Part shown: piece after piece, positions 3,670-55,792 of the stretch
How positions within the stretch are numbered: position 1 is the first letter of the stretch
Layout of the letters: each line of letters starts with the position of its first letter
IMG/VR virus record: IMGVR_UViG_3300030095_004334
Location: 1-55,890 of that record
Source of the DNA: a virus
Lineage: Duplodnaviria > Caudoviricetes
Strand: one strand, 5' to 3'
Length of the DNA stretch: 55,890 nucleotides
Translations under genes and position numbers: made by a program
Notes under the pieces: generated by a model
What the model was told of the DNA's origin: nothing
What the model saw: the letters and a program-made list of their open reading frames with translations, nothing else
The model's database searches: none

Positions 3670-4017
3670 CTATGTAATCTCCATAATTGATACAGCTATG
3701 TCTGAAGAACCTGAAGCTGTTAAAGAAAGAGCATCACCTGCCTCCATAACTAACTTATTACCCGCCATTAGTTCTAGCGTACCACCTGCTGGAATCGGTG
3801 CATTGGTTACTAGTTCAACTGTTTGGTTATTTTCATTGTTAGCTCCTGATCTGCTACCTGTGCTAGAAGCCACGCTGATAGTTCCGGTAACTTGACTAGT
3901 TGTTGTATTACCTACCATTACACCAAGAACTACAGTCGTTGCACCACTTGCTACAGTATAGATAACATCAGCACTAGTTACGTTTGCCTTTGTCACTAAT
4001 TTAAATGTATTTGCCAT
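3670..4017 (-). CDS. Virion structural protein (paralog of 51963..52292)
   Basis: MAN...YTV...LVxExxxxxxxTA...SxxExT shared with 51963..52292; GGAGG RBS. Confidence 0.65.
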   Translation of the reverse strand: MANTFKLVTKANVTSADVIYTVASGATTVVLGVMVGNTTTSQVTGTISVASSTGSRSGANNENNQTVELVTNAPIPAGGTLELMAGNKLVMEAGDALSLTASGSSDIAVSIMEIT

Positions 4018-23595: not shown

Positions 23596-23690
23596 TGGAA
23601 GATTTAAATACAATTTGCATTGTGATCACTTCGGTGGTCGCAATGCTTTTCGTTTGGGTTATTCTTAACGAACATTTTGGAGGTAAATGA
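23595..23690 (+). CDS. 31-aa single-TM peptide (not in ORF track)
   Basis: MEDLNTICIVITSVVAMLFVWVILNEHFGGK; TAATG coupling; fills the gap. Confidence 0.65.
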   Translation: MEDLNTICIVITSVVAMLFVWVILNEHFGGK

Positions 23691-23691
23691 C

Positions 23692-24642
23692 ATGAATGTA
23701 TTTTCAGCATTTGACGGAATGTCTTGTGGTCGTATTGCATTAGATAAGGTAGGGCTGTCCGTAGATAATTATTATAGCTCTGAAATTAAAAAATATGCAA
23801 TTGATATTGCAAATAAAAATTATCCTCAAGATAAAAAAAATAGACTAGGTGATATCACTACCATTAAAGGTAGTGATCTTCCTACAATAGATTTGTTCAT
23901 TGGTGGTTCACCTTGCCAAGATTTTAGTGGTGCTAATAAAAATAGATTAGGTGTTGAAGGTTCCAAGAGTGGTTTATTTTATGAGTGGTTAAGATTAAAG
24001 AATGAAGTGAAACCAAAATATTTCTTATTAGAAAATGTAAGAATGAAATCGGAGCACGAAGATATTATTTCTAAGGAATTAAATTGCAAGCCAATCAAAA
24101 TTAATTCTATGCATTTTGCTCCACAGTTAAGACATAGATTATATTGGACTAATATTCCTTTGCCTTATATTTATCCAAGGCCAAAACAATTAATTGAAGT
24201 TTTAGAAAATGGTTGGACGGAAAGAACTCATGCAAGATGTTTGCTTGAAAGTGACAGTCGTCCACTATCAACACCTATTAAAATGTTTCATAGATATTAT
24301 TCAACAGGGTTTACAACTTTGATTTTTAAATCTCAAAAACATTTTGGCGAATGTGTTTTCCATTACAATGAAAATTTTAAACACATGAACGCAAAACAAA
24401 TAGATGAACATATTAAAAATAGTAATATTGATTTATCTATTTATGAAGGTGTTAGATATTTAACACCACAAGAGAGAGAAGATTGCCAAACAGTTCCAAG
24501 AGGATATACAAAAGGTTTGACCGAAAATCAGATTGCTTGTATACTTGGAGACGGTTGGACAATAGATGTGATTGCTCACATCTTCAACGGACTAAAAGAA
24601 AGAGAGAAAGCAAATGTTATTATGGGAAAGTCAAGTGACTAA
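23692..24642 (+). CDS. DNA (cytosine-5)-methyltransferase 1 (start refined to ATG 23692)
   Basis: Motif I FDGMSCG, IV GGSPCQ, VI ENV, VIII QxRxRxYW, X LGDGW; GGAGG RBS. Confidence 0.9.
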   Translation: MNVFSAFDGMSCGRIALDKVGLSVDNYYSSEIKKYAIDIANKNYPQDKKNRLGDITTIKGSDLPTIDLFIGGSPCQDFSGANKNRLGVEGSKSGLFYEWLRLKNEVKPKYFLLENVRMKSEHEDIISKELNCKPIKINSMHFAPQLRHRLYWTNIPLPYIYPRPKQLIEVLENGWTERTHARCLLESDSRPLSTPIKMFHRYYSTGFTTLIFKSQKHFGECVFHYNENFKHMNAKQIDEHIKNSNIDLSIYEGVRYLTPQEREDCQTVPRGYTKGLTENQIACILGDGWTIDVIAHIFNGLKEREKANVIMGKSSD

Positions 24643-30771: not shown

Positions 30772-31643
30772 TCGTTACTCTCTTTCTGATTGGATGATTG
30801 ATTGTCCGATGTAGTAGGGGATGTGAGGGATGAGGCTGTTTCCGAGGGACTTAAGTCGGTCCACCCTGTTGGGTATCCCATGAGCCACTCGACCCACGTT
30901 GGGTTCAACGTCCCACCACCCTTCTTCTCTTTCACTGCCATGGTTAAACCAACTTGTTTTCCCATTGCTATCCGTCTCTGTATTGCCGGATCCGATAGGT
31001 TTCCCCGGTCCCTGTTGTCTGATGCGTTCGGAGTTGGCCACATTTTCACTGCTCCTGCTAACTTTCCCTTCTTCGCTATCTTCTCGTAGTTCGTATTCTC
31101 TCCTGTGTCTTTCCAATCTCTCGCTGCTGGAGTTGGCCATGATCTTCTCGTCACTGTGTTCATGAGAGTCTCTCCTCTTGTCACGTTCGTGCTCGGAGGA
31201 TAAGCTCCGATTTGATCCTTCCAATCTCTCGATGTTGGAGTTGGCCATGTCTGAATTGCCATTGTCAAAGGTGTTCCCCCCTGTGCGTACTTCTTCGTTC
31301 GATTGTTTGCTGAGTCTGTCGTTGGAGTTGGCCACAATCCAGACTCTTTCTCTTTTGTGGTTGGCACCGATGCTAGAAGCTGAAATACTAAACGTCCTTG
31401 CGGAGTAACCTTCACTCTCCAAGTCCGAGAGTACGGTGTCAAGACCGAGTTTAATGTGTCCACCAACGTTTTCTCCAATGACCCAAGTCGGTCGACACTC
31501 TTGGACAAGTCTAAAATACTCTGGCCAAAGATGTCTCGGATCTTGCTCACCTTTTTTGTTACCTGCAACGGAGAAAGGTTGGCAAGGGTATCCTCCTGTG
31601 ATGATGTCGATGTTATTAATTCCATTTGCTTTGAGTTTTTCAT
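30768..31643 (-). CDS. Overprinted beta subunit of C5 methyltransferase 2 (WPTP repeats plus motif IX)
   Basis: 291 open codons inside the MTase gene; four WPTP units; LNPTWVEWLMGYPTGWT supplies motif IX missing from the main frame. Confidence 0.8.
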   Translation of the reverse strand: MKNSKQMELITSTSSQEDTLANLSPLQVTKKVSKIRDIFGQSILDLSKSVDRLGSLEKTLVDTLNSVLTPYSRTWRVKVTPQGRLVFQLLASVPTTKEKESGLWPTPTTDSANNRTKKYAQGGTPLTMAIQTWPTPTSRDWKDQIGAYPPSTNVTRGETLMNTVTRRSWPTPAARDWKDTGENTNYEKIAKKGKLAGAVKMWPTPNASDNRDRGNLSDPAIQRRIAMGKQVGLTMAVKEKKGGGTLNPTWVEWLMGYPTGWTDLSPSETASSLTSPTTSDNQSSNQKESNE

Positions 31644-31815
31644 ATGTAAGCTCCTTTATATCTCCATAAATGGGAACATTCTCCCAATGTTTTCTTAATA
31701 CTTTTTGACAAAAGGGATCGTAGTCACAGAAAGCAACAGTTTCAAATTCTCCTGTTGCTTCTAATCCTAGACTAAACCCACCAATACCACTAAATAAATC
31801 TAAGTGTTGATACAT
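30775..31815 (-). CDS. DNA (cytosine-5)-methyltransferase 2, alpha subunit
   Basis: DLFSGIGG, GGYPCQPFS, ENV, HxRERVW, RLKSLGNS. Confidence 0.92.
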   Translation of the reverse strand: MYQHLDLFSGIGGFSLGLEATGEFETVAFCDYDPFCQKVLRKHWENVPIYGDIKELTYEKLKANGINNIDIITGGYPCQPFSVAGNKKGEQDPRHLWPEYFRLVQECRPTWVIGENVGGHIKLGLDTVLSDLESEGYSARTFSISASSIGANHKRERVWIVANSNDRLSKQSNEEVRTGGNTFDNGNSDMANSNIERLEGSNRSLSSEHERDKRRDSHEHSDEKIMANSSSERLERHRREYELREDSEEGKVSRSSENVANSERIRQQGPGKPIGSGNTETDSNGKTSWFNHGSEREEGWWDVEPNVGRVAHGIPNRVDRLKSLGNSLIPHIPYYIGQSIIQSERE

Positions 31816-35388: not shown

Positions 35389-35568
35389 TTACTTATTATT
35401 TTTTTCTAATTCTTTTTTCCAGTGTTGAAGGTTAGCTTCTGATATATCTTTTACCAAATGTGGTAACCATGCAACATCTATCTCAGTTGGTTTTCCAACT
35501 TCGATATTCTTATATTCGTCCCTAGTTATACTATAGTATAATTTTCCGTCTTGATATACAATTCTCAT
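35389..35568 (-). CDS. 59-aa hypothetical protein (not in ORF track)
   Basis: MRIVYQDGKLYYSITRDEY...; fills the gap with overlap at the 5' end. Confidence 0.65.
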   Translation of the reverse strand: MRIVYQDGKLYYSITRDEYKNIEVGKPTEIDVAWLPHLVKDISEANLQHWKKELEKNNK

Positions 35569-36044
35569 AGTTTGTTAATTTCCCATCTATTTTTTATTTC
35601 TTTATAAATACTTTGACTTTTCCTTTTAATACCGTCTTTCTTTTCTTTGTGTGCCCAAGCTTTTGTAGAATCTTTTGTTTGACCTACAATACTCATTCCT
35701 ATTGCTTTACATGCACTAGCTTTTTCTCTTACCAAAGTATAAGTTATCATTTTTTTATAACCCATTGCTTCTGCAACTCTCCAAGACCTACCATATAAAA
35801 AACTATTTGTGTTTTTTGGTGCGTTATCTAAAACACATGAACGAAGTAATTCTATTGTTTTTTTATTATCAAGTGTAGCTGAGATAGGTCTACCACAAAT
35901 AGCAACACCAACTAAAATATCTTCATGTAAAACACCTATGGCAAATTTATAACCTTGAACTCTTTTATTATGAGAATGATGTTCATCAACAAAACTATTT
36001 GCTTCTCTAAAAGTTAAAGGTATTACAGAAAATATTTTACTCAT
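35565..36044 (-). CDS. XF1762/Mom-like GNAT protein (candidate DNA modification enzyme)
   Basis: EANxFVxxHH...GxKFxIG...VGVAIxGRP...ExxRxC...MGYxxxITYTL. Confidence 0.72.
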   Translation of the reverse strand: MSKIFSVIPLTFREANSFVDEHHSHNKRVQGYKFAIGVLHEDILVGVAICGRPISATLDNKKTIELLRSCVLDNAPKNTNSFLYGRSWRVAEAMGYKKMITYTLVREKASACKAIGMSIVGQTKDSTKAWAHKEKKDGIKRKSQSIYKEIKNRWEINKL

Positions 36045-39402: not shown

Positions 39403-40191
39403 TTAATAGTTAGCTGCTGACTTAGCTTTATCTTCTTCTTCACCATGACTAGTTTGCACATCACCTTTACTTATGCTCTCTGCAAAAGCTTTTGCTTGTT
39501 CATAGATCTCTTTATCTTGAACAGGACCCACTTTGGATATACTCCAACCAAACCAAGTTCCTTTATCATTTGATTGTGGTACTGTTTTAAGATTGTAGAT
39601 ATGACTAAAAGGTGGTGGTGTGAAATGTCCGTTAGAACCTTTTATCTTAATACTATTCATCATGGAGTTCCATGTTCTACTAGTTTTAAGTTGAGTAGAT
39701 TTCATAGTAATTAAGGCTGTCTCACCGGATCCGTCATCCTTAATTATAGTTACAAAATAAGATGCGGTGTTCTCTAAATAATTACCACTTGGTAATCTAT
39801 CTTTAAAAGTTGCGTCTCTTTTTGCAGTTCCTACAATAGGACTATTGACAGGATGTATTGCTACTGGTGCAGCAGTTCCTTCACCTCTATCGGTCCATTC
39901 AACGAATTCCCTTTTATAATAACAAGGTAATAAGTTGATACCTTTTTCACCATCGTAAAGTTCACTTGTAACAGTATTAAAGATCATACCTGCTTCGGCA
40001 CCTTCTACATACTTAGCATCACGCTTGTTACATTGTGGTGATAGTTGACCCAATATTCTTAAAAAGGGTAAGGCATAGTCATCAGATGACATATTATCAA
40101 ACCCACTTTGAGCGTCTTGCTCAAAGAAAGACATTGGTAATACTTCCGTCTTGCTTTTTTCAGCTATCTTGGTTTTCGTTTCGTCATTCAT
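39403..40191 (-). CDS. Putative single-stranded DNA-binding protein
   Basis: LPFLxIL, MKSTQxKxSxxWN, NDKGTWFGW; replication module; own terminator. Confidence 0.55.
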   Translation of the reverse strand: MNDETKTKIAEKSKTEVLPMSFFEQDAQSGFDNMSSDDYALPFLRILGQLSPQCNKRDAKYVEGAEAGMIFNTVTSELYDGEKGINLLPCYYKREFVEWTDRGEGTAAPVAIHPVNSPIVGTAKRDATFKDRLPSGNYLENTASYFVTIIKDDGSGETALITMKSTQLKTSRTWNSMMNSIKIKGSNGHFTPPPFSHIYNLKTVPQSNDKGTWFGWSISKVGPVQDKEIYEQAKAFAESISKGDVQTSHGEEEDKAKSAANY

Positions 40192-40205
40192 TTTTCGTTC
40201 TCCTA

Positions 40206-40769
40206 TTATTTCCGACTGATTTTAGTTTGATCTTTTACATATGTATGAAAAAGATCAGAGGGCATGTCGAGGCCGGCCTCAACACGCTCTCTATAAAGTG
40301 CTCTCAAAGTAGAACTCTCAACCTTACTAGATTGAGAAGGTTCTAAACCTTGATCCACTGCAGAACCAAAGAAATCTTTAGCTCTGTTATCCTCACCTTT
40401 ACCGAAATCTACACTAACACTGTTTTTAACAATATCACCTAGATCGTTTTGGCGAAGCCATTCATAGCATGCTTCTCTTTTATTTACGTCTTTGGGTAGA
40501 GTGCAGCTAAATATTTTTCTGATTTCAATTGCTGATCCATCAGATAATTTTATAGATGTAATACCTTGCTCTGCAAGTATATCTGGAATTATTTCAGAAC
40601 TTAATTTATCGTGTTGTTCTTTTAATTTTTTAATTAACTTTTCTTGTTCTTCAATCTCGCTTTCTAAAGATTGAAGTTTATAACATTGTTGAGACAAAAC
40701 ATCTAAATCAGTTTTTTCAATTATCTCTTGTTGGTCTTCTTCAAAGTTAATCTTATTAGTTTCGTTCAT
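40206..40769 (-). CDS. Conserved replication-module protein
   Basis: Coiled coil, LxDGSxI, WLRxNxxGDIxK, STLxA. Confidence 0.65.
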   Translation of the reverse strand: MNETNKINFEEDQQEIIEKTDLDVLSQQCYKLQSLESEIEEQEKLIKKLKEQHDKLSSEIIPDILAEQGITSIKLSDGSAIEIRKIFSCTLPKDVNKREACYEWLRQNDLGDIVKNSVSVDFGKGEDNRAKDFFGSAVDQGLEPSQSSKVESSTLRALYRERVEAGLDMPSDLFHTYVKDQTKISRK

Positions 40770-40800
40770 ATTGTACCTCTGTATTCTTTCTATAGGGTTA

Positions 40801-41217
40801 TTAGTCTATGGCTATGTTATCATCTTTCTGATACAAATCAATTGATAAGGGATAATATTTATACTCTCTTTTATCCCACTTCAATAAATTAAACATACCG
40901 TTAGTTGTTTCGCTGACTATGGCTGTGGATAATCCAATAATTGCCGGGTCACCTAAACATAGAATATAATCTTGCTTTCTAAAATCTCTTAAGTTTTTTC
41001 TCATCTTAAAAATAAAAGGTGAAGAACTAAAAACTATTTGAGATAACATTGGTAAACAAATAACTAATTGACCAAAATCGCTAGCACTTAATATATTCAT
41101 ATTAGTTGGTGGATGTTGTAAAACATACACAAAATTTTGTTCAGGTTGATTCTTTAATGTATCTAAGAACTTTCCTAAACTGTCTTTTTTGTATAATTCA
41201 AATACTTCTTTTCTCAT
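40801..41217 (-). CDS. Conserved hypothetical protein
   Basis: VYVxQ...AxxFG...DYILxxGDP...LKWD...Y. Confidence 0.7.
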   Translation of the reverse strand: MRKEVFELYKKDSLGKFLDTLKNQPEQNFVYVLQHPPTNMNILSASDFGQLVICLPMLSQIVFSSSPFIFKMRKNLRDFRKQDYILCLGDPAIIGLSTAIVSETTNGMFNLLKWDKREYKYYPLSIDLYQKDDNIAID

Positions 41218-43862: not shown

Positions 43863-44083
43863 AACATCCCCAATAAAGTTTCTATAAACATTAATCCTAC
43901 AGCCCCCACTATAGATAATACAACCCAATAGATTTTGTCTATCTTGCCACCCAACTTATCAATATCTTCATGCATATGCTTAAGGTGATTATTTTTAATC
44001 TCATTAATCTCCTTTTTAACTCCTGTAATATGTCCGTGTAATGAAATAATATGTTCCCTTTGTGTTCTAGGTTCTATGGTCAT
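43859..44083 (-). CDS. Holin-like coiled-coil plus TM protein
   Basis: NNHLxH coiled coil, C-terminal TM; directly upstream of the endolysin. Confidence 0.55.
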   Translation of the reverse strand: MTIEPRTQREHIISLHGHITGVKKEINEIKNNHLKHMHEDIDKLGGKIDKIYWVVLSIVGAVGLMFIETLLGML

Positions 44084-47000
44084 AGTTTGCGTTCTATTTG
44101 TAAATTATTTGGATTAACTTGTAAACCACTAGTTGTTGTGTTTACATTAGGAATAGTCGATCCTGCTACTTGAGTTATTGTTGAAGGATCACTACTGATT
44201 TGTTGAAAGAAAGAAGTATCGTCAGCAGGTAGTTCTGTTGCTTCAAAAGGATTAGGAAAGTCAGGTAATGTTGCTAACCCTAAAGGCACATTATTATAAA
44301 AATTAAACATACTATTTATATAAATAGATGCAGGAAAATAAGGATTTGGTTTTCCTGCTTTTAATGCATTTTCTGCAAAAGTTCTTTTAACATTATCACT
44401 AATTTTTAAAGGTTTGAAAGATCCTAATTTTAAAGAACGTAATTCATTTTTAGCTCCACGATCATCAAAAGATTTATTCAAAGCAAATTGATCAGCACCT
44501 AATCTTATCGCTGCAAAATAATCTTTCATCATTTCTTGTTTAACTTTATATGCTTGAGCATTAGCTATTTTATATCTATCAATAATATCACTAGGACTTA
44601 TATCCCCACCTTTTAATAATTTAGATGTAAATTCTCTTCTTGAATTACGAATACCTCTTTGAAAGTCAGCGATCTTAAAATTAATAGCTCTTTCAGGTTC
44701 TACTTTAATTGCTCTAAATCCAACCAATCCTTGTAGTTCATCACCTAATTCGTAACTTCTACCATAGTCATCTGTTTCTCCTGATATACCTAAACCTATT
44801 CTTTTAAATTGTGCAATAGAACCAGGGGATTGAGACTTAACTAAATGATTTAAAATCGCACTTACTTTCTCACCCGGAGGAGTTTGATCTGTATAAAGAA
44901 CACTACCTTCTCTTGTCCTTCCTCCTCTTACTAGTATATCTGTTGCTGCCTCTGTCCAAATAGATTCACTAATAAAAGGACTAGCTATTTCTTTTGTTGA
45001 TTCAAACATACCTGATATAAAATCATTCATGATACCGTCTTCATCTGTTCTACCTTCTTGAACAGAATTAAGAACTGTTTGAATAGGTCGTATTAAAGTG
45101 TCATAAGCATTAGTACGAGAAAAATCTATATACTTTAATTCGTTTGTTTTTTTATCTCTGATAGGTATAAGAGTAGAATTTTTAGACCAACTAGGTACAT
45201 ATCTTCTTAAAGCTTCCATCTCTTCATCTGTTACATTATATAAAGCTTTTGCTCCCTCTACAGCAGCAAAAGGAACAGCAGTAGTGGTTGCTCCAAAACC
45301 AACTAATCTTTGTATACCTATATTTTTTAAAGGATTTACTACTTGACCATTCGCTAGTGTTTCTTGATAATTTATTTCTTTTAATGATCTTCTAACAATA
45401 TTAGTTCCTGTTCTCATAATTTCTGCTGGAAAAGATACAAAATTACCTAAAGGAAACTTTCTTAAACCTTTAACAAAATCACTAACATAAGCATAGTTAG
45501 GCACGTTGTTTCGTACAATATCTGCTGCTTCTTCATCTAATTGATCAGCAGTTCTTTTTATACCAAATTTTTTATAAGCTTTATCTAGTCTAGCTCTTTC
45601 AGAAATATAAGTTGTTATCTTCCAAAAATCATCTTCAGCAGTATAAAAGTCTTCACCAACTTTTTTAGCTTTAGATCCTATTTGTTGTAGTTTAGATAAA
45701 AAATTATTTGGATTTATATTTTCTCCTAAAAAATCTATTTCTTTAAAAAGTTTTCTAAGATCACCCACTTGAACATTAGAATTAACAACACCTAATTTTA
45801 ATAATTTATTATAAAAATCATTAAACTGCCCTGCTCCTTTTAAAGGTATTTGCAAAGATTTATAGGCATCTGCAAAAGCTTTTGTATTTGGTATAATACC
45901 ATTAGCAGCAGAAAAAGCTCCCGCACTAATAAAGTTACGAACGTGTGTCAAAGGTGATAAAATTGTTTTAGCTATTTGAGAAGTTGCTTTTGGAAAAAGA
46001 ATAAAATTATTTAAAGTATAACCAAGTGCTGTATCATTACTTATCAAAGAATTAGTTGCTCCTGTTACTGCATCAGCCATTCCTTTTGTGGTATATAATC
46101 CATCTAAAGGATTTGTTATTCCTGCTAATACAGAGTCAGGTGCTTGATCTTTAAAACTTATTTGTTTTAAATTATCACTACCAAAAACATCTAAGGCCTC
46201 GTCTTCATCTTCAAAAAACATTTTATATTTTTTCTTTGCTTGTGTTTCTGATAATCCTTCTCCACCTTCAGCAACAGGTTTTATTGCTTTTTTTACTAAT
46301 TCATCTGATTGTAATGCTAATGCTTGATAGTATTGATTATTTCTTGTTATTAGAGATAGTCTTTCTGTACCTCCTAATATAGTTAAACCTACATTATTTT
46401 GTTTACCAAAAAGTTCTTCCATAGATTCTTTAAAAGCAGGTGTTAAATCATCTAAAGAAACATAACCTGATTTATATTTACCAAAAGAATCTATATCATT
46501 AAGAACACTATTGGTTGCAAGAAACTTAGGTAATTTAAAAATAGCAGAAGGCGATCTTCTTTCACCCATTGCCAAAGATTTTTTATTGGGAAGTCTTGCT
46601 GATTTAATTATTTCATTAACATATTTTTCTGCTGTCTCAGAAGTTATTTTATTTCCTCCTAGCTCTGCTTGTTTTATTATTTCTAACTTCATTTTTTCTA
46701 TTAATTGTTTTGTTGGTCTATAATTTAACCAAGGTATTATAGATTTGTTTTGAAATATCTCATAATTAGAACCTAAAAAACTTTGAAACTTTTCTCCAAA
46801 AACTCCTTTAAATTCTTTAAAAGATTTTTCATCCATGTTTTTTCCTACAAAGCTAAACATTTTACCCCAACTACCTCTAACAGTATTCATTTGACCAAAT
46901 ATATTTTTAATACTATTAGTGTCAGCACCGAGTGATTTTAATTTTTTAAATAATTGTTGTGAAAGCTCTTTATCCATTTTACCAAAAACTATTTGACCTG

Positions 47001-47958
47001 AATCACTGACACCAGGTTTACCAGACAAAAGAACATCATTTAATTCTTTTAATAATTTTTTTCTTTCATTCTTTGCTGTTGAGTTAAATGCCGTTTTTAA
47101 AAAAGGAAACATCTTATCTATTTCTTTTGTAATTTCTCTTGATGTTTGTTGAGCTATAGCTACATCTGCTGCTCTGATTCCTTCAAATGCTCTTTCTACT
47201 TTAAAAAATTCAGGATCTTTTTGACTTCTTGCTCTAAATTTTCCTGCAAATTTATCTAAAAATTTATCACCAGCTTCATCGCTTCGAGCTAAGTTTTTAT
47301 TTCTTTTAGCTAGTTTTTTAATTGCTGCGCCTGTGCCTCCAATAACTCCAGAAAACAAAGCACCCTCTGTTCCAAACTTAATACGATTTAATATTTCTCT
47401 ACCCGGATCATAGTCTTTAGTTCTATCTAATTTAGTAGGACCCCCTAACATATCACCAAAAGTTCCTACTTTATCTACATCTCCTACAAACACACCTTCA
47501 GCCACACCTGAACCAAATGCTGCTATACCATATTTAGCAGCTTTTTCTTTTTTGTTAAATGTCGTGGCAAGCTTTCTAGCTTCTCTTAACTCCACAGGGC
47601 TTAATGCTTTTTTATCTAATGCGAAATATTTTTTTGCTTTCTTTCCTTTAATTGCAACGTTAGCAAGTTGAGCACCTTTTGTAAACGCAACAGCACCGGG
47701 AATACCAAGATTAACTAATGTTTCTGTTATCTTACCTGCTGTAGTTGCTTCTGCTGCTTCATCAAAAGGATTTATTTGATCAAAGAAAGCCTCTACTTTT
47801 GCAGCGTTATTGGTCCCCGCACCGAGGTCAATGAGGCTTGCTCCTAAAGATATAACACCTTCAGGTATCTTAATAAAACCAGACGCTACACCTGCTAGTA
47901 TAGATTGTATAGTTCCAACTTTATTTTCAGGCTCTTGATCGAAATTAAAATCAACCAT
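44080..47958 (-). CDS. Large internal virion/DNA-ejection protein
   Basis: 1292 aa helical protein with Gly/Ala-rich hydrophobic N-terminal region; last of the ejection cluster. Confidence 0.75.
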   Translation of the reverse strand: MVDFNFDQEPENKVGTIQSILAGVASGFIKIPEGVISLGASLIDLGAGTNNAAKVEAFFDQINPFDEAAEATTAGKITETLVNLGIPGAVAFTKGAQLANVAIKGKKAKKYFALDKKALSPVELREARKLATTFNKKEKAAKYGIAAFGSGVAEGVFVGDVDKVGTFGDMLGGPTKLDRTKDYDPGREILNRIKFGTEGALFSGVIGGTGAAIKKLAKRNKNLARSDEAGDKFLDKFAGKFRARSQKDPEFFKVERAFEGIRAADVAIAQQTSREITKEIDKMFPFLKTAFNSTAKNERKKLLKELNDVLLSGKPGVSDSGQIVFGKMDKELSQQLFKKLKSLGADTNSIKNIFGQMNTVRGSWGKMFSFVGKNMDEKSFKEFKGVFGEKFQSFLGSNYEIFQNKSIIPWLNYRPTKQLIEKMKLEIIKQAELGGNKITSETAEKYVNEIIKSARLPNKKSLAMGERRSPSAIFKLPKFLATNSVLNDIDSFGKYKSGYVSLDDLTPAFKESMEELFGKQNNVGLTILGGTERLSLITRNNQYYQALALQSDELVKKAIKPVAEGGEGLSETQAKKKYKMFFEDEDEALDVFGSDNLKQISFKDQAPDSVLAGITNPLDGLYTTKGMADAVTGATNSLISNDTALGYTLNNFILFPKATSQIAKTILSPLTHVRNFISAGAFSAANGIIPNTKAFADAYKSLQIPLKGAGQFNDFYNKLLKLGVVNSNVQVGDLRKLFKEIDFLGENINPNNFLSKLQQIGSKAKKVGEDFYTAEDDFWKITTYISERARLDKAYKKFGIKRTADQLDEEAADIVRNNVPNYAYVSDFVKGLRKFPLGNFVSFPAEIMRTGTNIVRRSLKEINYQETLANGQVVNPLKNIGIQRLVGFGATTTAVPFAAVEGAKALYNVTDEEMEALRRYVPSWSKNSTLIPIRDKKTNELKYIDFSRTNAYDTLIRPIQTVLNSVQEGRTDEDGIMNDFISGMFESTKEIASPFISESIWTEAATDILVRGGRTREGSVLYTDQTPPGEKVSAILNHLVKSQSPGSIAQFKRIGLGISGETDDYGRSYELGDELQGLVGFRAIKVEPERAINFKIADFQRGIRNSRREFTSKLLKGGDISPSDIIDRYKIANAQAYKVKQEMMKDYFAAIRLGADQFALNKSFDDRGAKNELRSLKLGSFKPLKISDNVKRTFAENALKAGKPNPYFPASIYINSMFNFYNNVPLGLATLPDFPNPFEATELPADDTSFFQQISSDPSTITQVAGSTIPNVNTTTSGLQVNPNNLQIERKL

Positions 47959-47967
47959 TTATCCTCC

Positions 47968-49140
47968 TCAAGATCTTAAATAATTATTAGCACTTTCAAA
48001 AGTATTAAATGTTTTTGATTGACCTGTTTCTTGATCTGCCACAATGTAATTTTGATTTACTGTATCAAAATAAATACTAGATTTATCTAAATTTGTTGTA
48101 ACTACTTCAAAACCATCTTCTGGTGTTTTACCTTTTGCTTTATATGGAAGTTGTTTAAGATCAGCACCATACCTTGTTTTTAAAGCTCTAAATTCAATAT
48201 GTCCGTCTCTATAAACTTGTTCGTGTAAAGTAGATGGTTCAAAGTTAGAACTGATAGTAGCTCTTACTGTAGATAAAGGTAACTCTTTTTGAAATTGACT
48301 TTGACCTCCTGCAAAAGCGATAGCGTCTTCTTCAGACATATTAGGATATTTATTTTTAATAAAAGCATAATCTTTTTGTTTATCTGTAGATGCTGTATCT
48401 GAAATATATTTTGAAACGGCAGCTTCTCTTGACTTTTGTTTTAAAGCGGTATCGTCTCCTGCCTCACCAGCAGCAGCAATAGCTCCACCATAATCTTCTT
48501 CTAAAATTTTAGGAGCAGCAGCAGTTAACATCTTAAATATTTTATCTTTAGTAGCATTATCTCCTAGCATAATTCTTTCAAAAGTTTTAGCGTCTGCGTC
48601 TATCAGATCTTCCATAGCATCAACATCTATTGCTTTATTATTATCTTGTACTTCAGGAGCATCTTTCTTTTCATCCATGGTTACTGTTTTATCTCCTTGT
48701 TGATTATCTTCTGATTGATCTATTTTAGGAGCTTCAGGAAGTTCTGTGGTTGTTTTATTAGGACCATATCTAAAAGTATCAAAGTCTTCTACTCCTACTC
48801 CAAAACCACTACCTGGTTGAAAAGGATCTAAATATTTAAAAGTAGGTTCACCACCAAAAAATATTTTTGCAAAATTACCTATGTCTGAACCAACATTTAC
48901 AACAGGAGAAACGGCACTTAAAGTAGGATCTACAATAAGTTTTTTAAAAGGAGATTGAGAAAATCCTGTACCTCCTCCTGTGGGTTGTGTTGTTTGTGTT
49001 GTTTTAGATTCGTCACCTGGAAATACAAATCCTGCAGTTTGATAATTTTGTCTTGGCATTAATCCAGACGTGATTCCTGTTCCACGGCTATCGACTTTAC
49101 CACCACGCCTAAACATAGGTCTGTTTAAAGTTCTACTCAT
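47968..49140 (-). CDS. Internal virion/ejection protein
   Basis: N-terminal LxRPMFRRGG motif; position. Confidence 0.65.
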   Translation of the reverse strand: MSRTLNRPMFRRGGKVDSRGTGITSGLMPRQNYQTAGFVFPGDESKTTQTTQPTGGGTGFSQSPFKKLIVDPTLSAVSPVVNVGSDIGNFAKIFFGGEPTFKYLDPFQPGSGFGVGVEDFDTFRYGPNKTTTELPEAPKIDQSEDNQQGDKTVTMDEKKDAPEVQDNNKAIDVDAMEDLIDADAKTFERIMLGDNATKDKIFKMLTAAAPKILEEDYGGAIAAAGEAGDDTALKQKSREAAVSKYISDTASTDKQKDYAFIKNKYPNMSEEDAIAFAGGQSQFQKELPLSTVRATISSNFEPSTLHEQVYRDGHIEFRALKTRYGADLKQLPYKAKGKTPEDGFEVVTTNLDKSSIYFDTVNQNYIVADQETGQSKTFNTFESANNYLRS

Positions 49141-49982
49141 TAACCAAACAATCCTAACTGACCACCGATACCTGCTATACCTGCACCCATTCCAAGAATT
49201 TGAGATAGTGGGCTAGGAGGAGGTGTTGATGTTGTGGAGTAACCTGCTTGTGCTGGATATCCACCTATTAATCCTGTTAATTGTTGACCAACAAATCCTA
49301 AGTTTTGTTGATCGGCAAAAGCTGCTTCTCTATCTGCTGCCGCTTGTGCATCGATAATAGCTTGTGCCTGTGCTTGTTGTTGCTGACCTAATTGACCAAC
49401 ACCGGTAATTTGTTGTTGTGCTAATTGTGGGGCTAGTTGAGCTAGTCCTTGTTGTTGTGTAGATAATGCTTGTTGATTAGCAAAAGCTTGTTGTGCTGCT
49501 TGTTGTGCTTGTGTAAATCCTTGTTGTCTTAATTGTGCTTCTAGTTGTGCTTTATTAAAAGCAGTAACAGCATCAAACTCACCTTCTTGAGCACCTTGTC
49601 TACCACCACCAAAAGCACCAAACTGAAATGCTTGATCACCAATTGCTGATCTTTGTGCTGCTCTTTCTCGTTCCAAAGCAGCAAGAGAAGCATCAATAAC
49701 TTCTTGTTGATAGGGTGACATAAAATCTTGAAAAGCTTGAGGACCTGTTAAAGTTTGAGCAGCAGTAGCATCGGTTGCTGCTTGATTTAAGAACGGTTCA
49801 AAAGAACCTAGACCACCTGCTAAAGTTCTAGCTTGTTGTTGTAAAGCTGTTTCGTCTGCTACAGTAGGTTGATAAGAACGTGTATCAATAGGTGTTCCTA
49901 ATTGTTTTGTTAATTTATCTACAAGTACCTCACCACCAGCTTCTATAAAAGGGGCAGGTCTTGTTATTGTTGTATCTACCAT
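49140..49982 (-). CDS. DNA pilot/ejection protein
   Basis: FMSPYQQEVID, GAFGGxR, Q/A-rich helices, Gly-rich hydrophobic C-terminus. Confidence 0.72.
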   Translation of the reverse strand: MVDTTITRPAPFIEAGGEVLVDKLTKQLGTPIDTRSYQPTVADETALQQQARTLAGGLGSFEPFLNQAATDATAAQTLTGPQAFQDFMSPYQQEVIDASLAALERERAAQRSAIGDQAFQFGAFGGGRQGAQEGEFDAVTAFNKAQLEAQLRQQGFTQAQQAAQQAFANQQALSTQQQGLAQLAPQLAQQQITGVGQLGQQQQAQAQAIIDAQAAADREAAFADQQNLGFVGQQLTGLIGGYPAQAGYSTTSTPPPSPLSQILGMGAGIAGIGGQLGLFG

Positions 49983-51241
49983 TATACTTTACTCTCTAAT
50001 TGATTCATTAATTGATACATTCTTTGTGCTCCTTTATTAACACTACCACCACCAGCAGCTCTAACGGCATCAGCCGTCATAACGAATTCATTTTTTGATA
50101 ATCTTGCGGGGACATCATCAGCTTTCTCTTTAGACCCCACAGGTATAAAGCCACCGCCCCTATAGTCCATTTCCATAGAAGGCATACCACCCATTTTTAA
50201 AGTTGCAAGTCCACCTTTTTTAGCACCAAAATATTGTCCTGATTCTCCACCCATCATTCTGTTATATATTTCCATAATTTCACTTGGTGACATTTGAGAA
50301 GTATTAACTCCCATTTGTATTAATTGTTGTTGCATTTTACCTAAACCACCACCAGCATTGTCTGCAACTTGCATTTCATTGGGATCTAATAAACTTTTTA
50401 CTCCTCCTGCAAAACTTCTATCGTCTTCATCTTCTAATTCACCCGGTAAATCTATTAAAGTATCAGCAGGATTTCCAGACTCAGTAGGCTTAGGATCAAG
50501 CATAGACATAAGTAATCTAGGAGGTATTTCTTCTTCTATAGATTCTTGTGTTAACATATCTATTATAGATTGACTAGTAGGGTCACCACCAAGAGCTAAT
50601 CCTACACGACCACCTTTATTATAACTTGGTCTATTGGCCACATAATCATCTATTTGTTGTTGTGAATATCCTGCGTTGGCAAGATAACTTCTTAAATAAC
50701 CTAAGTATTCAGATGTATTATATCCATCTTCTGAATTTTGATAAGCGTCTTGTGCAGCTTTTGCAGCATCGTAAATATCAAACCCTGCTCCCGCTGCTGC
50801 TTGTGTTCCTGCAGCTTTACCAACATCAAGTATTGATCCAAGTATTTTACCCTCTTCACCAGAAACACTTGGGTTTAAAAAGTCTCCAACTTTAGCTGTA
50901 AGCTCTTTACCTTCTGTGCCTACTTTTTGTAAAAATGTTTTATCTGCTGTTGGAGGGCCTTGTTTAATATCTGCAGAAGTTGGAAGAGTTTTAAATATTC
51001 CAGATAATGCAGCTTTTCTTAAATCTGTTTTACCTTCATTAACAGCACTGTCTGCTAATAGATTAGCAAAATATCCTCTAGCAAAATTACTCATAATTCC
51101 TGCACCACCAGGCACTAAAACAGATGCTAGGGGTCCTATAAAAGGTTTAATCTCATTAGGTACAATTCTTGAAATAACTTTGTTAACAGGTTTAAATACG
51201 TCTGATACTACGTCTTCTGCTTTTTTAAATACTTTACCCAT
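49982..51241 (-). CDS. Internal virion/ejection protein with GG repeats
   Basis: Amphipathic Lys-rich N-terminus; C-terminal GG..DDVPARLSKNEFV domain of the type seen in tape-measure/ejection proteins. Confidence 0.7.
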   Translation of the reverse strand: MGKVFKKAEDVVSDVFKPVNKVISRIVPNEIKPFIGPLASVLVPGGAGIMSNFARGYFANLLADSAVNEGKTDLRKAALSGIFKTLPTSADIKQGPPTADKTFLQKVGTEGKELTAKVGDFLNPSVSGEEGKILGSILDVGKAAGTQAAAGAGFDIYDAAKAAQDAYQNSEDGYNTSEYLGYLRSYLANAGYSQQQIDDYVANRPSYNKGGRVGLALGGDPTSQSIIDMLTQESIEEEIPPRLLMSMLDPKPTESGNPADTLIDLPGELEDEDDRSFAGGVKSLLDPNEMQVADNAGGGLGKMQQQLIQMGVNTSQMSPSEIMEIYNRMMGGESGQYFGAKKGGLATLKMGGMPSMEMDYRGGGFIPVGSKEKADDVPARLSKNEFVMTADAVRAAGGGSVNKGAQRMYQLMNQLESKV

Positions 51242-51705
51242 TAGGCGTAGTGTCCTTTTGTGTAGCGAATAGCCATTCTTTTAATTGTTTCATTGTCTGA
51301 CATTCTTAACCATTTCACAGGTTTATTATATCCTAATAATTTAGTAAAGTATTCTTTACTCCACTTCATCACCTTCTTAATATTGCCACAACATATAGTA
51401 TCTATATGCCAAGCTATCGTTCCACTGTTATAATCTTGAGGGTCTAAATCTGCTGTTTTCATAAATTTTTGTTCTGTTTCTTCATTTAAAAAAGCCCAAT
51501 TGGTAAAAGCAATTGGTAAATTATTTTCATAATGCACCTTGTATTGTCCTAATATAATGGATGGTAAAATATGTTGGAGCACGTCCTCGTACGTGTGGTC
51601 TTGATAGCGAGGAAAAGATTTATATAAACCACAAATCATGGCCATATCCCTTATTTTATCTGCATCTATCATAAACACATTACTTTTTTTTGCTTCAAAA
51701 ATCAA
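51241..51705 (-). CDS. RTX toxin-activating lysine acyltransferase (HlyC/TAAT family); start may be 51672 or 51645
   Basis: SxPxY...ILPxIxxGQY...PIAFxxWAxL..E.ExKF...DYNSG..WxID aligns with HlyC SPLH/NVLP/PVAYCSWA/DWTSG/WFID. Confidence 0.85.
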   Translation of the reverse strand: MIFEAKKSNVFMIDADKIRDMAMICGLYKSFPRYQDHTYEDVLQHILPSIILGQYKVHYENNLPIAFTNWAFLNEETEQKFMKTADLDPQDYNSGTIAWHIDTICCGNIKKVMKWSKEYFTKLLGYNKPVKWLRMSDNETIKRMAIRYTKGHYA

Positions 51706-51954
51706 CTATTCATCCTCAGATTTAGATATAACATCAGGCATTTTAGCGACCTTTATATTAACACTTCTAGAAATATCTTCTTGTTTTGTGTCTGTACTTG
51801 GGTCGTTAACATCGTCTTCTGCTTCTTTATCTGATGAATATTCTTTGTTAGTTTTAAGGTTTTTAACTGTTACTTCTGTTTCAATATCAATTTTTTCTAT
51901 AACTACACCATTGACTATTGTATCTACTTTACCTTTTTCTACAAATGATACCAT
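51706..51954 (-). CDS. Small acidic hypothetical protein
   Basis: GGAGG RBS; NxKTxxEYxSDxEAxxDVxDPxT. Confidence 0.7.
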   Translation of the reverse strand: MVSFVEKGKVDTIVNGVVIEKIDIETEVTVKNLKTNKEYSSDKEAEDDVNDPSTDTKQEDISRSVNIKVAKMPDVISKSEDE

Positions 51955-51962
51955 TTTACCTC

Positions 51963-52292
51963 CTACGTTGTTCTTGTCATTTCTAGTACAGATAATATGA
52001 CATGAAGTCTATTAGCTGTAGCTGCCGTGACTTTGATTATTTCTGTTTCTTCTACAACCAAAGGCTGTGAAAGAAGTTCTTTAGTGGCTTTTGCATCAAC
52101 TGCTTCTTCTTTGTAAACACTAAAAACATTACTACCATTAGTTATAGTAACTGTAAGAGTATCCGCACTAGCAGAATCATTTGATACAATAATTGATTTA
52201 ATTATACCTGTAGTCTCAGAGGGCACTGTATAAAGAGTTGTTATATCAGTACTAGTTAAATCTACTTTTTTGTTTAAATAATTATTGGCCAT
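51963..52292 (-). CDS. Virion structural protein (paralog of 3670..4017)
   Basis: LYTVP, IIKSIxVxN, LVxEE. Confidence 0.65.
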   Translation of the reverse strand: MANNYLNKKVDLTSTDITTLYTVPSETTGIIKSIIVSNDSASADTLTVTITNGSNVFSVYKEEAVDAKATKELLSQPLVVEETEIIKVTAATANRLHVILSVLEMTRTT

Positions 52293-52456
52293 TAACTAAA
52301 GAAGAAAGCAAAACGCTCTTCTTCCTCTCTTAAATTTTGTTGATATGTTGTATTGAGTTCTTCAATCAGTGCTGCAATACCTCTGTTAATTTGTCTTTGA
52401 TTAGATACTTCATAATTATCTTTAGGTTCCGGTATTCTTACTACTATTCTAGCCAT
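52292..52456 (-). CDS. 54-aa virion-module protein (not in ORF track)
   Basis: MARIVVRIPEPKDNYEVSNQRQINR...; TAATG overlaps on both sides. Confidence 0.75.
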   Translation of the reverse strand: MARIVVRIPEPKDNYEVSNQRQINRGIAALIEELNTTYQQNLREEEERFAFFFS

Positions 52457-54618
52457 TATCTCATTCCATCTGGTTTAACATCAAGAGTTAGCGTTCCATA
52501 TCTCCACTCTTGATTAATATCTGTATTCGCAACTTTAACATTAACATAACGACCCCTTGCTCTTGTATCAACTTTATCTGTACTTGAGTTTATAATAAAA
52601 GGACTATGAGTAGAACTAATACCTGTTTCCGAAGGATATCTTTTGACAGCTAGTGTTACTGTGGCATTACCTTCTAAATCTTTAAAATCAGGTATAAAAC
52701 GACTAACAGATACAAATTTTTCTCCAACACCTGTTTGACTTTGTAAATCAAAATCATAAGACTGTATGTTTGATTCTATAGTAGTAACACTTCCGTCTTC
52801 ATTCACTTGATCTGTTCCTATTTCGTGTTCAAAGTATATTGTCTTACCTAATCCATCTTCACCTAAAATAACAGGAAAGGTTCCTGTGCCGGTATCATCA
52901 AATTTTGTTGCGTGAGGTTTAGGATATAAGTTTGCGTCAATCCAAGAAGTCCTCGGTTCACTATTCGTGTACCATACACCACCGGGAACTTGTGCTGATT
53001 CAGCATAATTATAAGCTACAGCCTTACTATTAAAGTCACTATTTGTAGGATACCACCATGTTATTTCAGAAAATAAATTATTTAATCCTGCAACAACTTG
53101 TTGTCCTTTTGTTGTGTCAATATTATTAAATACTTCGTCTTCTACAGAACAAGGTAATGTTTTAACTGTACCATCAAATAAAAAGAAACCTTTTGTGCCC
53201 ATCCAATAAGCAACACCGTCTACTTCTATAGCTGCATTCTTACCAATCAAACCACAGTTAGTACCTACTTGTTCAAATCCAAATATAAAAGGAGATCCAA
53301 CAAACTTCATTGTATATAAAGCTGTATCAGTCCATATCAAAATATTTTCTTTTGCTTTTAAAGCACCAATAATTTTTGTTCCGTCTTGAAGTCTTTGAGA
53401 ACCTGCTGTATTCGTAACACTAGGTGTATAACTATTAATATTTTCTCTTTCTGAAAATCTTATAAACATATCATCTTGAGTTGTTGATGTACCCACGGTT
53501 GTTTCTGTACCAAAGTGTATTAAGTGTCTTGTAGTAGGTGATATTAAAGTTAATCGAGAAGCTGTAGGATTACTTCCTGTTGCAAAGTTTGTTGTATCTA
53601 AAGCTGCTCTAGTTGTTAAAGGTGTTGTTGATGAGGGATTCCATGTAAAAGTTTTACTGTTAGCTACCGTTGCAACTAATACTTCACCAAAATTATCTAA
53701 AGACCAAAGACCGGGTTCTAAGTTTACTTGACCAGCTTTTACTGCATCACCCCAAGCATTATAATCTGTTGCATTAACTACGGTTGCTCCATTACTGTGA
53801 GTTGTAGCTGTTGTACCTAAAGCTCCTCGTGTACATCCTGTTAAATCATTAGTAGATTTTCCTGTGTAAGTTATAAGTTCTGAACCAATTAAAATAGTTC
53901 CTGCTGTAGGAAAAGATGCAGCACTAGAAAGTGTTATTGTTGTTTCACTATTATCTAAATCTTCGTTTACCGTTGTTGAAGCTGCGTCTGATATTGTACC
54001 ACCCCATGTGCTAACACCCCAACCATATCCATAAGTTTGTTTTTGTGGACCAACTACAAAATAAAATTCTACTGTTGTGGATCCTCCTGCACTAACAGTG
54101 GCTGTCGCTGCCGCCGAAGAAGTAATTGTAAATGTAGTTGTACTAGGAACAGTGTTAATCATAAAAACTTTATCTTCAAAATTACTAGCACTAAGACCTG
54201 TGCCACTAGGTAAGGTGACGCTATCAAGTAATATAATATCTCCAACACTTGCACCATGAGCACTTGAAGTTGTAACTAAAACAGAAGTAGATTCATCTGT
54301 TGTTGCTAGAGTTGCACTTGTTTGTTGTCTTGTAGAATCAAAAGGAGTGATGTCGTGAAGTTGACCTTCAAAGAATAATAGTAAAAATTTATCTGTGCCT
54401 AAAGCAATATATCTATTACCGGTTGTATCTATAAAAGGTTTTTGTGCACGAACCACACCAACAATACTATCTGAAATTAAAGAAGACCAACCACCTATTT
54501 TTTCTGGTAGGCCATATCGAAATCTTACATTAGAACTATCAATCCAACGGTTCTCTGCACCCTTGGTAGTATTCTGTTTATCTATTCCGGGAATAATTTC
54601 AAAGTTAATAAGAGACAA
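52456..54618 (-). CDS. Tail nozzle/packaged-DNA stabilisation protein (P22 gp10 or T7 gp12 equivalent)
   Basis: VRFRYGxPEKIGGW, IRFS, WTDT, NCGLIG beta-propeller-type blocks; precedes the ejection genes. Confidence 0.75.
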   Translation of the reverse strand: MSLINFEIIPGIDKQNTTKGAENRWIDSSNVRFRYGLPEKIGGWSSLISDSIVGVVRAQKPFIDTTGNRYIALGTDKFLLLFFEGQLHDITPFDSTRQQTSATLATTDESTSVLVTTSSAHGASVGDIILLDSVTLPSGTGLSASNFEDKVFMINTVPSTTTFTITSSAAATATVSAGGSTTVEFYFVVGPQKQTYGYGWGVSTWGGTISDAASTTVNEDLDNSETTITLSSAASFPTAGTILIGSELITYTGKSTNDLTGCTRGALGTTATTHSNGATVVNATDYNAWGDAVKAGQVNLEPGLWSLDNFGEVLVATVANSKTFTWNPSSTTPLTTRAALDTTNFATGSNPTASRLTLISPTTRHLIHFGTETTVGTSTTQDDMFIRFSERENINSYTPSVTNTAGSQRLQDGTKIIGALKAKENILIWTDTALYTMKFVGSPFIFGFEQVGTNCGLIGKNAAIEVDGVAYWMGTKGFFLFDGTVKTLPCSVEDEVFNNIDTTKGQQVVAGLNNLFSEITWWYPTNSDFNSKAVAYNYAESAQVPGGVWYTNSEPRTSWIDANLYPKPHATKFDDTGTGTFPVILGEDGLGKTIYFEHEIGTDQVNEDGSVTTIESNIQSYDFDLQSQTGVGEKFVSVSRFIPDFKDLEGNATVTLAVKRYPSETGISSTHSPFIINSSTDKVDTRARGRYVNVKVANTDINQEWRYGTLTLDVKPDGMR

Positions 54619-54627
54619 AATTATCTC

Positions 54628-55335: not shown

Positions 55336-55352
55336 GTGTTCTCCATTTTATC

Positions 55353-55790: not shown

Positions 55791-55792
55791 GG

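Follow-up and report, generated by a model that had tools for sequence, protein, structure and literature searches.

What use does a phage that encodes no RTX (repeats in toxin) toxin make of a toxin-activating acyltransferase? This question is raised by the window that we analyzed, the whole 55,890-base virus record IMGVR_UViG_3300030095_004334, i.e., a complete genome, in which an open reading frame (ORF) resembling HlyC and the other acyltransferases that activate RTX toxins lies directly before the gene for a 419-amino acid (aa) protein in the late module (Table 1). An earlier reading of the sequence, referred to here as the original prediction, proposed that the phage fatty-acylates its own DNA-ejection proteins with this enzyme, and noted that the window lacks RTX toxins, GGxGxD repeats and type I secretion genes. 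This absence was confirmed: none of the six frames contains GGxGxD, and a Pfam scan of 56 ORFs detected neither RTX nor type I secretion families. Based on comparison of the locus with its relatives, we propose that the enzyme attaches a lipid to the N-terminus of the next gene's product, probably at Gly2, and we put the chances of this proposal at about even.

The ORF product is a true member of the HlyC family of toxin-activating acyltransferases (TAATs), as the original prediction had claimed. It matches the Pfam HlyC profile (PF02794) with E 3.4e-17 and 63 bits, compared to a cut-off of 25, over residues 23-143 (profile positions 4-123 of 127), and the same family is precomputed for 31 of the 32 homologs found. 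The sequence also matches the ApxC chain 4whn_A (E 1.4e-7). The AlphaFold2 model of the protein has a predicted local distance difference test (pLDDT) score of 90.5 (below 50 for residues 1-10), and its top three Foldseek matches are ApxC chains (4whn; E 5e-10 to 2e-9, template modeling (TM) scores 0.68-0.71), the best with a TM score of 0.71 at E 5e-10, followed by GNAT-like domains from SxtA, GphF and CurA with E values of at least 3e-3. Two start codons are available, a TTG at 51705 (154 aa), which has a GAGGA motif 7 nucleotides (nt) upstream, and an ATG at 51672 (143 aa); many relatives begin at the position of Met12.

The active site differs from that of known TAATs at the catalytic His. 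Residue alignment with ApxC, in which we take the Asn and Asp to be Asn35 and Asp93, sets SFPRY of the window protein on SSPLH of ApxC, such that Ser30 and Asp102 occupy the Ser and Asp positions, while Tyr34 stands at the site of the catalytic His and His45 at that of the Asn, just as had been read from the sequence. Thus, the His of the His/Asp dyad has no match in this protein. In an alignment of 30 diverse sequences, Q54, Y55, W70, A71, G95, W132 and R134 are invariant, Y34 and D102 are nearly so, and the column of the catalytic His holds Tyr or Trp. The invariant residues, together with the retained Asp, argue for a constrained and active protein. Tyr is the general acid in classical GNAT enzymes. 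Moreover, according to the available text of PMC8510554, in which the catalytic His is His24 in ApxC and His37 in CdiC (dyad His37/Asp107), TAATs use the His/Asp dyad; under a direct-attack model, deprotonation of the incoming amine falls to the Asp, with the His needed only to protonate the leaving thiolate of the acyl carrier protein (ACP), and both ApxC His24Ala and CdiC His37Ala keep activity. Since TAATs with a His-to-Ala change are active, a Tyr in place of the His is compatible with catalysis and, by analogy, the missing His may not be fatal to activity.

The gene that follows the enzyme begins in a constant way. In the window, the junction reads GCC TAA TGG GTA AAG, in which the last A of the TAA stop is also the first base of the next ATG (TAATG), an overlap already noted in the original prediction; among relatives, the two genes overlap by up to 17 nt or are separated by up to 12 nt, and thus Met-Gly is not a by-product of overlapping reading frames. 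Among loci in which the enzyme is part of the structural module and an ORF follows it, 155 of 155 have Met-Gly at the start of that ORF, compared to a background of 20 Met-Gly starts among 741 distinct ORF N-termini in the same loci. Sorted by phage type, the next gene starts with Met-Gly in all 78 loci of the window's type (47 distinct N-termini; the 78 count the window itself and five contigs fetched twice), in 44 of 44 HTVC026P-type loci, and in 9 of 9 HTVC115P-type loci, as well as in five further HTVC115P-like loci and a contig from a metagenome-assembled genome (MAG). In a previously unexamined TAAT lineage (43-47% identical to the earlier loci), all 15 downstream ORFs are J-like and start with MGG, as predicted, and the control scans described below added 3 + 3 enzyme-bearing loci, each with a Met-Gly protein directly after the enzyme.

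These partners are of two unrelated kinds, ~400-aa proteins in podoviruses and J-like tail-tip proteins in siphoviruses. In the siphoviruses of the HTVC026P/111P/112P type, the acyltransferase gene lies between those for an L-like tail protein and the partner, a J-like central tail fiber (phrog_31, E 3.8e-80). Both kinds of partner share just an N-terminal module, composed of Met-Gly, a small residue, Ile or Val, an amphipathic stretch and a hydrophobic stretch. The amphipathic, Lys-rich helix that had been proposed at the MGKVFKK start of the window's 419-aa protein is well founded: modeled as a helix, residues 2-25 have a hydrophobic moment of 0.69, compared to 0.22 +/- 0.11 for shuffled sequences, a value reached by 0 of 2000 shuffles, and partner N-termini are strongly amphipathic as helices.

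Within this module, the residue that is conserved is Gly2. It is invariant in 83 distinct partner N-termini, in which the first Lys occurs anywhere from position 3 to beyond position 40, and when 21 diverse homologs of the 419-aa protein are aligned, no column within the first 70 residues is invariant except Met1 and Gly2. We rejected a Gly-Lys motif as the conserved site since Lys3 is present in just 8 of the 47 distinct N-termini of the window's phage group. Furthermore, several J-like partners have no Lys within their first 70 residues, HTVC112P gp47 has none within its first 40, and in three loci (L235-L237) the partner's N-terminus is acidic and contains no Lys before about residue 46. 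The original prediction had invoked the Gly-Lys context of RTX toxins and acylation of the phage's pilot/ejection proteins; the former fails on these counts (several partners lack Lys in their first 45-70 residues), and for the latter the evidence points to the first downstream protein only, not to all four ejection-type ones. If this module is what the enzyme acts on, Gly2 offers the only conserved amine, its alpha-amine, which would be exposed by the host methionine aminopeptidase, an enzyme that removes Met before Gly.

In the same three loci (L235-L237, 3035-4761), we note that the 419-aa gene is replaced by genes for a 339-aa protein (MGGGVPIVDD, acidic), located directly after the acyltransferase, and a 235-aa protein. 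Thus, the N-terminal module can be acidic as well as basic.

Relatives that lack the enzyme serve as natural controls. Two phages of the window's type, HTVC027P and 023Pt_psg01, have no PF02794 match anywhere in the genome. We searched IMG/VR with their homologs of the 280-aa protein encoded after the 419-aa gene, and scored the gene upstream of each match, in 162 sources in all. In 81 sources, there is no acyltransferase in the locus and the partner has a 15-50-aa N-terminal extension (MAISR and similar; 58 distinct N-termini), and in the 6 sources in which the acyltransferase is present, a Met-Gly protein follows it directly in all 6. Another group of sources, considered below, has Met-Gly partners without the enzyme; 4 had too little upstream sequence and 8 were not evaluable. 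Residue 3 differs between Met-Gly partners with and without the enzyme: with the enzyme, it is S36/K9/A5 (50 distinct N-termini of the window's phage type), and without the enzyme F26/L9/I2/V2/W1/R1 (41 distinct N-termini). The enzyme-less Met-Gly forms also have about twice as many hydrophobic residues at positions 2-9, as expected if hydrophobic side chains stand in for an acyl anchor that was lost. In a FastTree phylogeny of 134 distinct 280-aa neighbors, presence of the enzyme changes four times, and three of three independent pairs on supported branches go in the same direction; a neighbor-joining tree gave the same block pattern as the FastTree phylogeny used for these counts.

Several observations were made on phages without the enzyme. 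In HTVC027P, in which the partner extension starts with MAISR, the acyltransferase slot (L159 4283-6125) is taken by a group-1 glycosyltransferase (Pfam, E 6e-11) and a 303-aa ORF, which may be a different way to modify or present the same protein. An alternative Met-Gly start for HTVC027P gp82 was rejected because the codon before the Gly is CTA. The J-like proteins of the siphoviruses Kolga (L325), K4PH164 (L326) and CAjan (L327) start with MA or MP and carry long hydrophobic, transmembrane-like stretches (MAAAAPIIGAI, MPPAIIAGAIAIG), which suggests that J-like proteins commonly have a membrane-active N-terminus, whether lipidated or not. In Kolga, a pelagiphage, gp14, encoded just upstream of the J-like gene, was considered as a hidden TAAT or GNAT and rejected, since it has no Pfam family and an hhalign probability of 1.1% against the TAAT alignment.

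The Tyr-type branch is found almost only in viral contigs. A profile built from 30 diverse relatives matched 1645 library representatives at E <= 1e-3, and we scored the best 150 of these by column. Among these 150, the catalytic-His column is Y75/H48/W4/F2, with Tyr forms occupying roughly the first 65 ranks and His forms appearing only further out, and the catalytic-Asp column is D104/E14. In IMG/VR, 332 contigs encode a relative of the acyltransferase, and the loci that we analyzed from this search are the best 80 of the 332. In contrast, a scan of 185,579 prokaryote species (one genome each) yielded one relative, on a 6-kb MAG contig with an HTVC115P-type, phage-like arrangement, and no relative turned up in metagenome scans with the queries P0087 and P0091. 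Three family members were used as tblastn queries against 50,697 deposited phage genomes and matched Pelagibacter phages only (6, 3 and 6 records). The pelagiphages with the trait span three or four unrelated architectures, and this distribution among deposited genomes suggests a host-specific entry adaptation passed between phages. Genes of Pelagibacter phages HTVC026P, 111P, 112P, 103P, 104P and 115P (30-39% identity) are deposited as "toxin-activating lysine-acyltransferase" and belong to the same branch as the window protein; thus, the family assignment is already public.

We considered how such an enzyme might act, as follows. The acyltransferase would be translated together with the 419-aa protein encoded directly after it, whose Met1 would be removed by the host methionine aminopeptidase. 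The enzyme would then transfer an acyl chain, by analogy with TAATs from host acyl-ACP, to Gly2 at the amino group thus exposed (a Lys close by is a less likely acceptor), yielding a lipidated amphipathic N-terminus. When the virion fires or the tail tip opens, this N-terminus could insert into the SAR11 envelope and help the ejected proteins to build or anchor a conduit for the DNA. In the siphoviral pelagiphages, the same enzyme is paired likewise with the N-terminal extension of the J-like tail-tip protein. In broader form, pelagiphages, whose hosts are the most abundant marine bacteria, might encode their own N-terminal Gly fatty-acyltransferase, derived from Lys-directed TAATs through the His-to-Tyr change, and with it equip either an ejected protein or J with a lipidated "entry peptide". 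Such a system would parallel, in bacterial viruses, the myristoylated penetration proteins VP4 and mu1N of animal viruses, and would be the first for lipidation of an N-terminal Gly that a virus of bacteria encodes. We hold this larger conjecture only tentatively, as possible but on balance doubtful.

A number of points weigh against lipidation of the downstream protein. Met-Gly partners occur without an acyltransferase in the locus in 63 of the 162 control sources (the 41 distinct N-termini above, a sister lineage); since Met-Gly is kept without the enzyme, it is not exclusive to it, which weakens the case. With just three pairs, a sign test cannot go below P = 0.25, and thus the co-variation is underpowered; in addition, absence from a contig fragment is no proof of absence from the genome. 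Among five J-like proteins of phages without the enzyme, that of lambda alone starts with Met-Gly (MGKGSS, hydrophilic). The catalytic His is Tyr or Trp throughout the branch, so the protein may be inactive or may use other chemistry, and characterized TAATs acylate internal Lys side chains, not N-termini (PMC8953716, available text). The analysis is comparative throughout, and it is by comparison that we infer catalytic activity, donor, acyl length, site, entry role and virion location; the presence of the 419-aa protein in the virion and its ejection are deduced from gene order. Finally, in the HTVC103P type (11 loci), the enzyme is encoded in the early region, next to an unrelated 95-117-aa protein. 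The adjacency to a Met-Gly gene seen in the 155 structural-module loci is lacking in these 11. If the enzyme serves a Met-Gly protein, however, such a protein is expected elsewhere in HTVC103P, and it was found: gp58, in the structural module, starts with MGSVFKRVRK, is related to the HTVC115P partner, and is one of two Met-Gly starts among the 40 coding sequences translated.

Other explanations would account for part of this evidence. The enzyme might follow classical TAAT chemistry and acylate one or more internal Lys side chains of the 419-aa protein, or of several ejection proteins, in a Gly-Lys or other context. All characterized TAATs acylate Lys epsilon-amines (PMC8953716, PMC8510554, available text), the window's 419-aa protein is Lys-rich with Gly2-Lys3, and most podovirus-type partners carry 3-13 Lys/Arg in residues 2-30. 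We nevertheless consider this explanation unlikely. The partner N-termini have no conserved Lys position, Lys3 being confined to the 8 of 47 noted above, and in HTVC112P gp47, several J-like partners and L235-L237 the first 40-70 residues offer little or no Lys, which leaves Lys residues further inside these proteins as candidate sites. Moreover, the feature that tracks the enzyme is Gly2 with a small residue 3. An N-terminal acetyltransferase-like activity, in which a short acyl group passes from acyl-CoA to Gly2 and blocks or neutralizes the N-terminus rather than lipidating it, accounts for the same Gly2 evidence, and bacterial N-terminal acetylation is carried out by the GNATs RimI, RimJ and RimL. 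Both the sequence and the fold of the window protein, however, are nearest to TAATs that use acyl-ACP, not to Rim-type GNATs, and the greater hydrophobicity of enzyme-less N-termini fits loss of a lipid better than loss of an acetyl group, making this activity very improbable.

Two further explanations dispense with lipidation of the partner, and we regard each as quite improbable. The protein might be catalytically dead and bind the amphipathic N-terminus of the downstream protein as a chaperone of assembly or a minor structural component; in siphoviral relatives, its slot is that of the K/I-type assembly genes of lambda-like tails. Loss of the catalytic His across the whole branch and the location of the HTVC026P-type gene between the L-like and J-like genes are consistent with this idea, and binding would also account for the co-variation with the partner N-terminus. 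On the other hand, the Asp and the residues of the active-site region are invariant or nearly so at 27-40% overall identity, the active His-to-Ala TAATs and the general-acid Tyr of classical GNATs argue that loss of the His need not mean loss of function, and in the HTVC103P type the gene is expressed with the early region rather than beside its partner. Alternatively, the target might not be a phage protein at all, but a host envelope protein, a lipid, a polyamine or another amine, with the position of the gene reflecting only an inherited gene block. The early/replication-region gene of the HTVC103P type points in this direction, as does the confinement of the trait, among deposited genomes, to phages of one host group; furthermore, many small molecules are substrates of GNAT-like folds, the group to which the next fold matches (SxtA, GphF and CurA) belong. 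This alternative is harder to reconcile with an enzyme that adjoins two unrelated partners sharing just the Met-Gly module, with a partner N-terminus that switches when the enzyme is absent, or with the Met-Gly partner that HTVC103P still carries.

We conclude that the co-variation of enzyme and partner is easier to explain by a phage lipidating its own virion protein than by a role related to toxins. What stands of the original prediction of self-lipidation is that a real HlyC/TAAT homolog is conserved in the tail/ejection module and that its presence tracks features of the next protein. The family and fold, the make-up of the active site, the adjacency, the invariant Met-Gly and the co-variation are observed directly; the lipidation itself is our proposed explanation of them.

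Comparison with known systems places this proposal in context. Like the RTX acyltransferases HlyC, CyaC, ApxC and RtxC (PF02794), the window protein has the family fold and keeps the Asp of the dyad, and like hlyC before hlyA, its gene lies directly before, and co-oriented with, that of its presumed substrate. In contrast to these enzymes, it is phage-encoded, it has Tyr in place of the catalytic His (Tyr or Trp in the branch), and the conserved feature of its partner is an N-terminal Met-Gly rather than an internal Lys. Entry proteins of several non-enveloped viruses, including picornavirus VP4, reovirus mu1N and polyomavirus VP2, are N-myristoylated by the host N-myristoyltransferase (NMT), which consists of two GNAT domains and uses an acyl-CoA donor. 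The analogy is one of how the systems would work, with Met removal, an acyl amide at Gly2, and a lipidated internal or tip protein that inserts at entry; unlike NMT, the window enzyme is a single 154-aa domain nearest ApxC, is encoded by the phage and probably uses acyl-ACP, and it is not a member of the NMT family. Podoviruses have ejection or internal virion proteins such as P22 gp7, gp20 and gp16 and T7 gp14-16. The window genes similarly lie between tail and lysis genes, with a 280-aa product that matches an ejection-protein family, but the 419-, 390- and 1292-aa proteins have no detectable sequence relation to the P22 and T7 proteins. We know of no lipidation of the P22 or T7 ejection proteins or of lambda J, which starts with MGK but has neither the amphipathic-hydrophobic extension nor a TAAT. 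Class IV contact-dependent inhibition loci encode the TAAT CdiC, whose substrate is the neighboring non-RTX protein CdiA; lipidation of the CdiA receptor-binding domain strengthens the protein's hold on the target envelope (PMC8510554, available text). In both CdiC and the proposed system, a TAAT is recruited outside RTX toxins to lipidate a neighboring delivered protein that engages a target envelope, although CdiC is bacterial, keeps the His37/Asp107 dyad, and attaches 3-hydroxydecanoate to internal Lys (PMC8510554, available text).

The link to a substrate appears to be new. Our literature search, in which subscription journals were mostly outside the scope, found no paper that links a phage HlyC/TAAT homolog to a virion or ejection protein, nor any account of the Tyr-type active site, the near-exclusive viral/pelagiphage distribution, the Met-Gly partner across two unrelated virion proteins, or the co-variation with enzyme loss. 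In bioRxiv 10.1101/2019.12.14.876532, "HlyC" labels a gene in Fig. 2 that is merely named in the figure legend; unlike the present analysis, the available text suggests no substrate, describes no active-site variant and does not connect the enzyme with the gene that follows. If the proposal is true, bacterial viruses would have a new way of maturing their virions, in which a lipid transferase of the phage modifies the phage's own entry protein, and TAAT substrates would gain a third class beside RTX toxins and CdiA. The site specificity (N-terminal Gly) and the active-site solution (Tyr for His) might likewise prove to be new, and the proposal bears on how phages breach the unusual cell envelope of SAR11.

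Table 1. Features of the acyltransferase locus, in positions of the 55,890-base window
Feature	Position	Strand	Description
Upstream neighbors	51706..54618	-	720-aa virion structural protein (52456..54618; phrog_3287, E 2.6e-95) and ORFs of 54, 109 and 82 aa
Acyltransferase homolog	51241..51705	-	HlyC/TAAT family, Tyr type; Tyr34, His45, Gln54-Tyr55, Trp70-Ala71, Asp102, Trp132, Arg134
TAATG stop/start overlap	51239..51243	-	Acyltransferase stop and 419-aa gene start; translational coupling
419-aa protein, proposed substrate	49982..51241	-	N-terminus MGKVFKK, amphipathic and Lys-rich, then Gly/Pro-rich hydrophobic stretch; variable middle; C-terminal ~60 aa conserved
N-terminal module of 419-aa protein, residues 1-45	51107..51241	-	Proposed lipidation and membrane-insertion segment
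280-aa protein	49140..49982	-	phrog_4287, family named DNA ejection protein, E 2.8e-12
390-aa protein	47968..49140	-	Same module; N-terminal motif MSRTLNRPMFRRGG; place kept by synteny
1292-aa protein	44080..47958	-	Probably a large internal/ejected virion protein, by position and size

The late module lies on the minus strand in the order tail fibers, 720-aa virion protein, three small ORFs, acyltransferase homolog, the 419-, 280-, 390- and 1292-aa proteins, a 74-aa ORF, and endolysin. In related IMG/VR loci, the order from the 720-aa protein through the small ORFs, acyltransferase, and 419-, 280-, 390- and 1292-aa genes is preserved down to 51% acyltransferase identity, and the 280-aa gene stays behind the 419-aa gene in related contigs. 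Of the four genes that had been called ejection-type, the one for the 280-aa protein is borne out by its match to phrog_4287, while the other three are so called from position and size. The "ejection" label draws on that match, the gene order and some weak leads for the 1292-aa protein. These leads are language-model look-alikes from clusters with LPD38, LPD3, MuF_C or lysozyme domains; in addition, the HTVC103P counterpart is a 1671-aa protein with a lysozyme domain. The 419-, 390- and 1292-aa proteins received no family assignment in the Pfam and PHROG scans, PDB sequence searches with the 1292-, 280- and 419-aa proteins returned nothing meaningful (no match for the 419- and 1292-aa proteins), and megablast of window positions 44000-55890 against deposited phages gave no match.

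Two of these proteins have other features of note. In the 419-aa protein, the C-terminal ~60 residues (residues 350-419; 49982..50192, minus strand) are the best conserved, with 75-80% identity compared to ~30% elsewhere. Residues 350-400 match tape-measure PHROGs (phrog_5448, E 7e-7), and the C-terminal segment is 48% identical over 51 aa to tape measure proteins of Tsukamurella phages; these phages are unrelated to the window's, and the segment is a short motif shared with them. The 390-aa protein and its homologs open with a motif of the form RRPMFR(K/R)GG (window 49095..49140, minus strand; loci L159 8061-8900 and L160 7998-9614), and a similar motif, SRGQMxRQLY..GGGIM, forms the N-terminal extension of partners without the acyltransferase (loci L164-L240). 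These motifs may be a common packaging or targeting signal of internal proteins.

In the PHROG and Pfam scans, the window as a whole encodes a terminase, an SU10-like portal and adaptor, a major capsid protein, GroES, a family-A DNA polymerase, a primase, helicases, an M15 endolysin, two C5 DNA methyltransferases and one Mom-like protein. This content matches that of the HTVC023P-type pelagiphages in the available text of bioRxiv 10.1101/2019.12.14.876532, and the window belongs to this HTVC023P / vSAG 37-F6 type. The same source relates the type to vSAG 37-F6 and equates it with two viral clusters that rank among the most abundant in the global ocean; its structural and entry proteins are almost wholly unannotated. 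The portal (18480..20945, minus strand) and adaptor (5605..6288, minus strand) match Pfam families derived from E. coli phage SU10 (SU10_portal, E 2e-12; SU10_adaptor, E 3e-20), and thus give the HTVC023P-type virion, unannotated in other respects, a template for its structure. A 388-aa ORF (17324..18490, minus strand), the next after the portal gene, also starts with Met-Gly-Ser (MGSKATKSPSQG), with a basic but not amphipathic N-terminus; tblastn with its product against deposited phages found no homolog, and it could be a second substrate or a coincidence.

A Mom-like protein, two C5 cytosine methyltransferases and a block like gp32/gp33/gp34 of Pam3 (35565..36044, minus strand; 23677..24642, plus strand; 30775..31815, minus strand; 39403..41217, minus strand) suggest heavy investment in DNA modification and anti-restriction. 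Finally, the 109-aa ORF among the upstream neighbors (51963..52292, minus strand) and a 115-aa ORF (3670..4017, minus strand) both match phrog_1276 (E 1e-9 and 3e-8), and they are probably paralogs, each located just before a block of tail/fiber genes.

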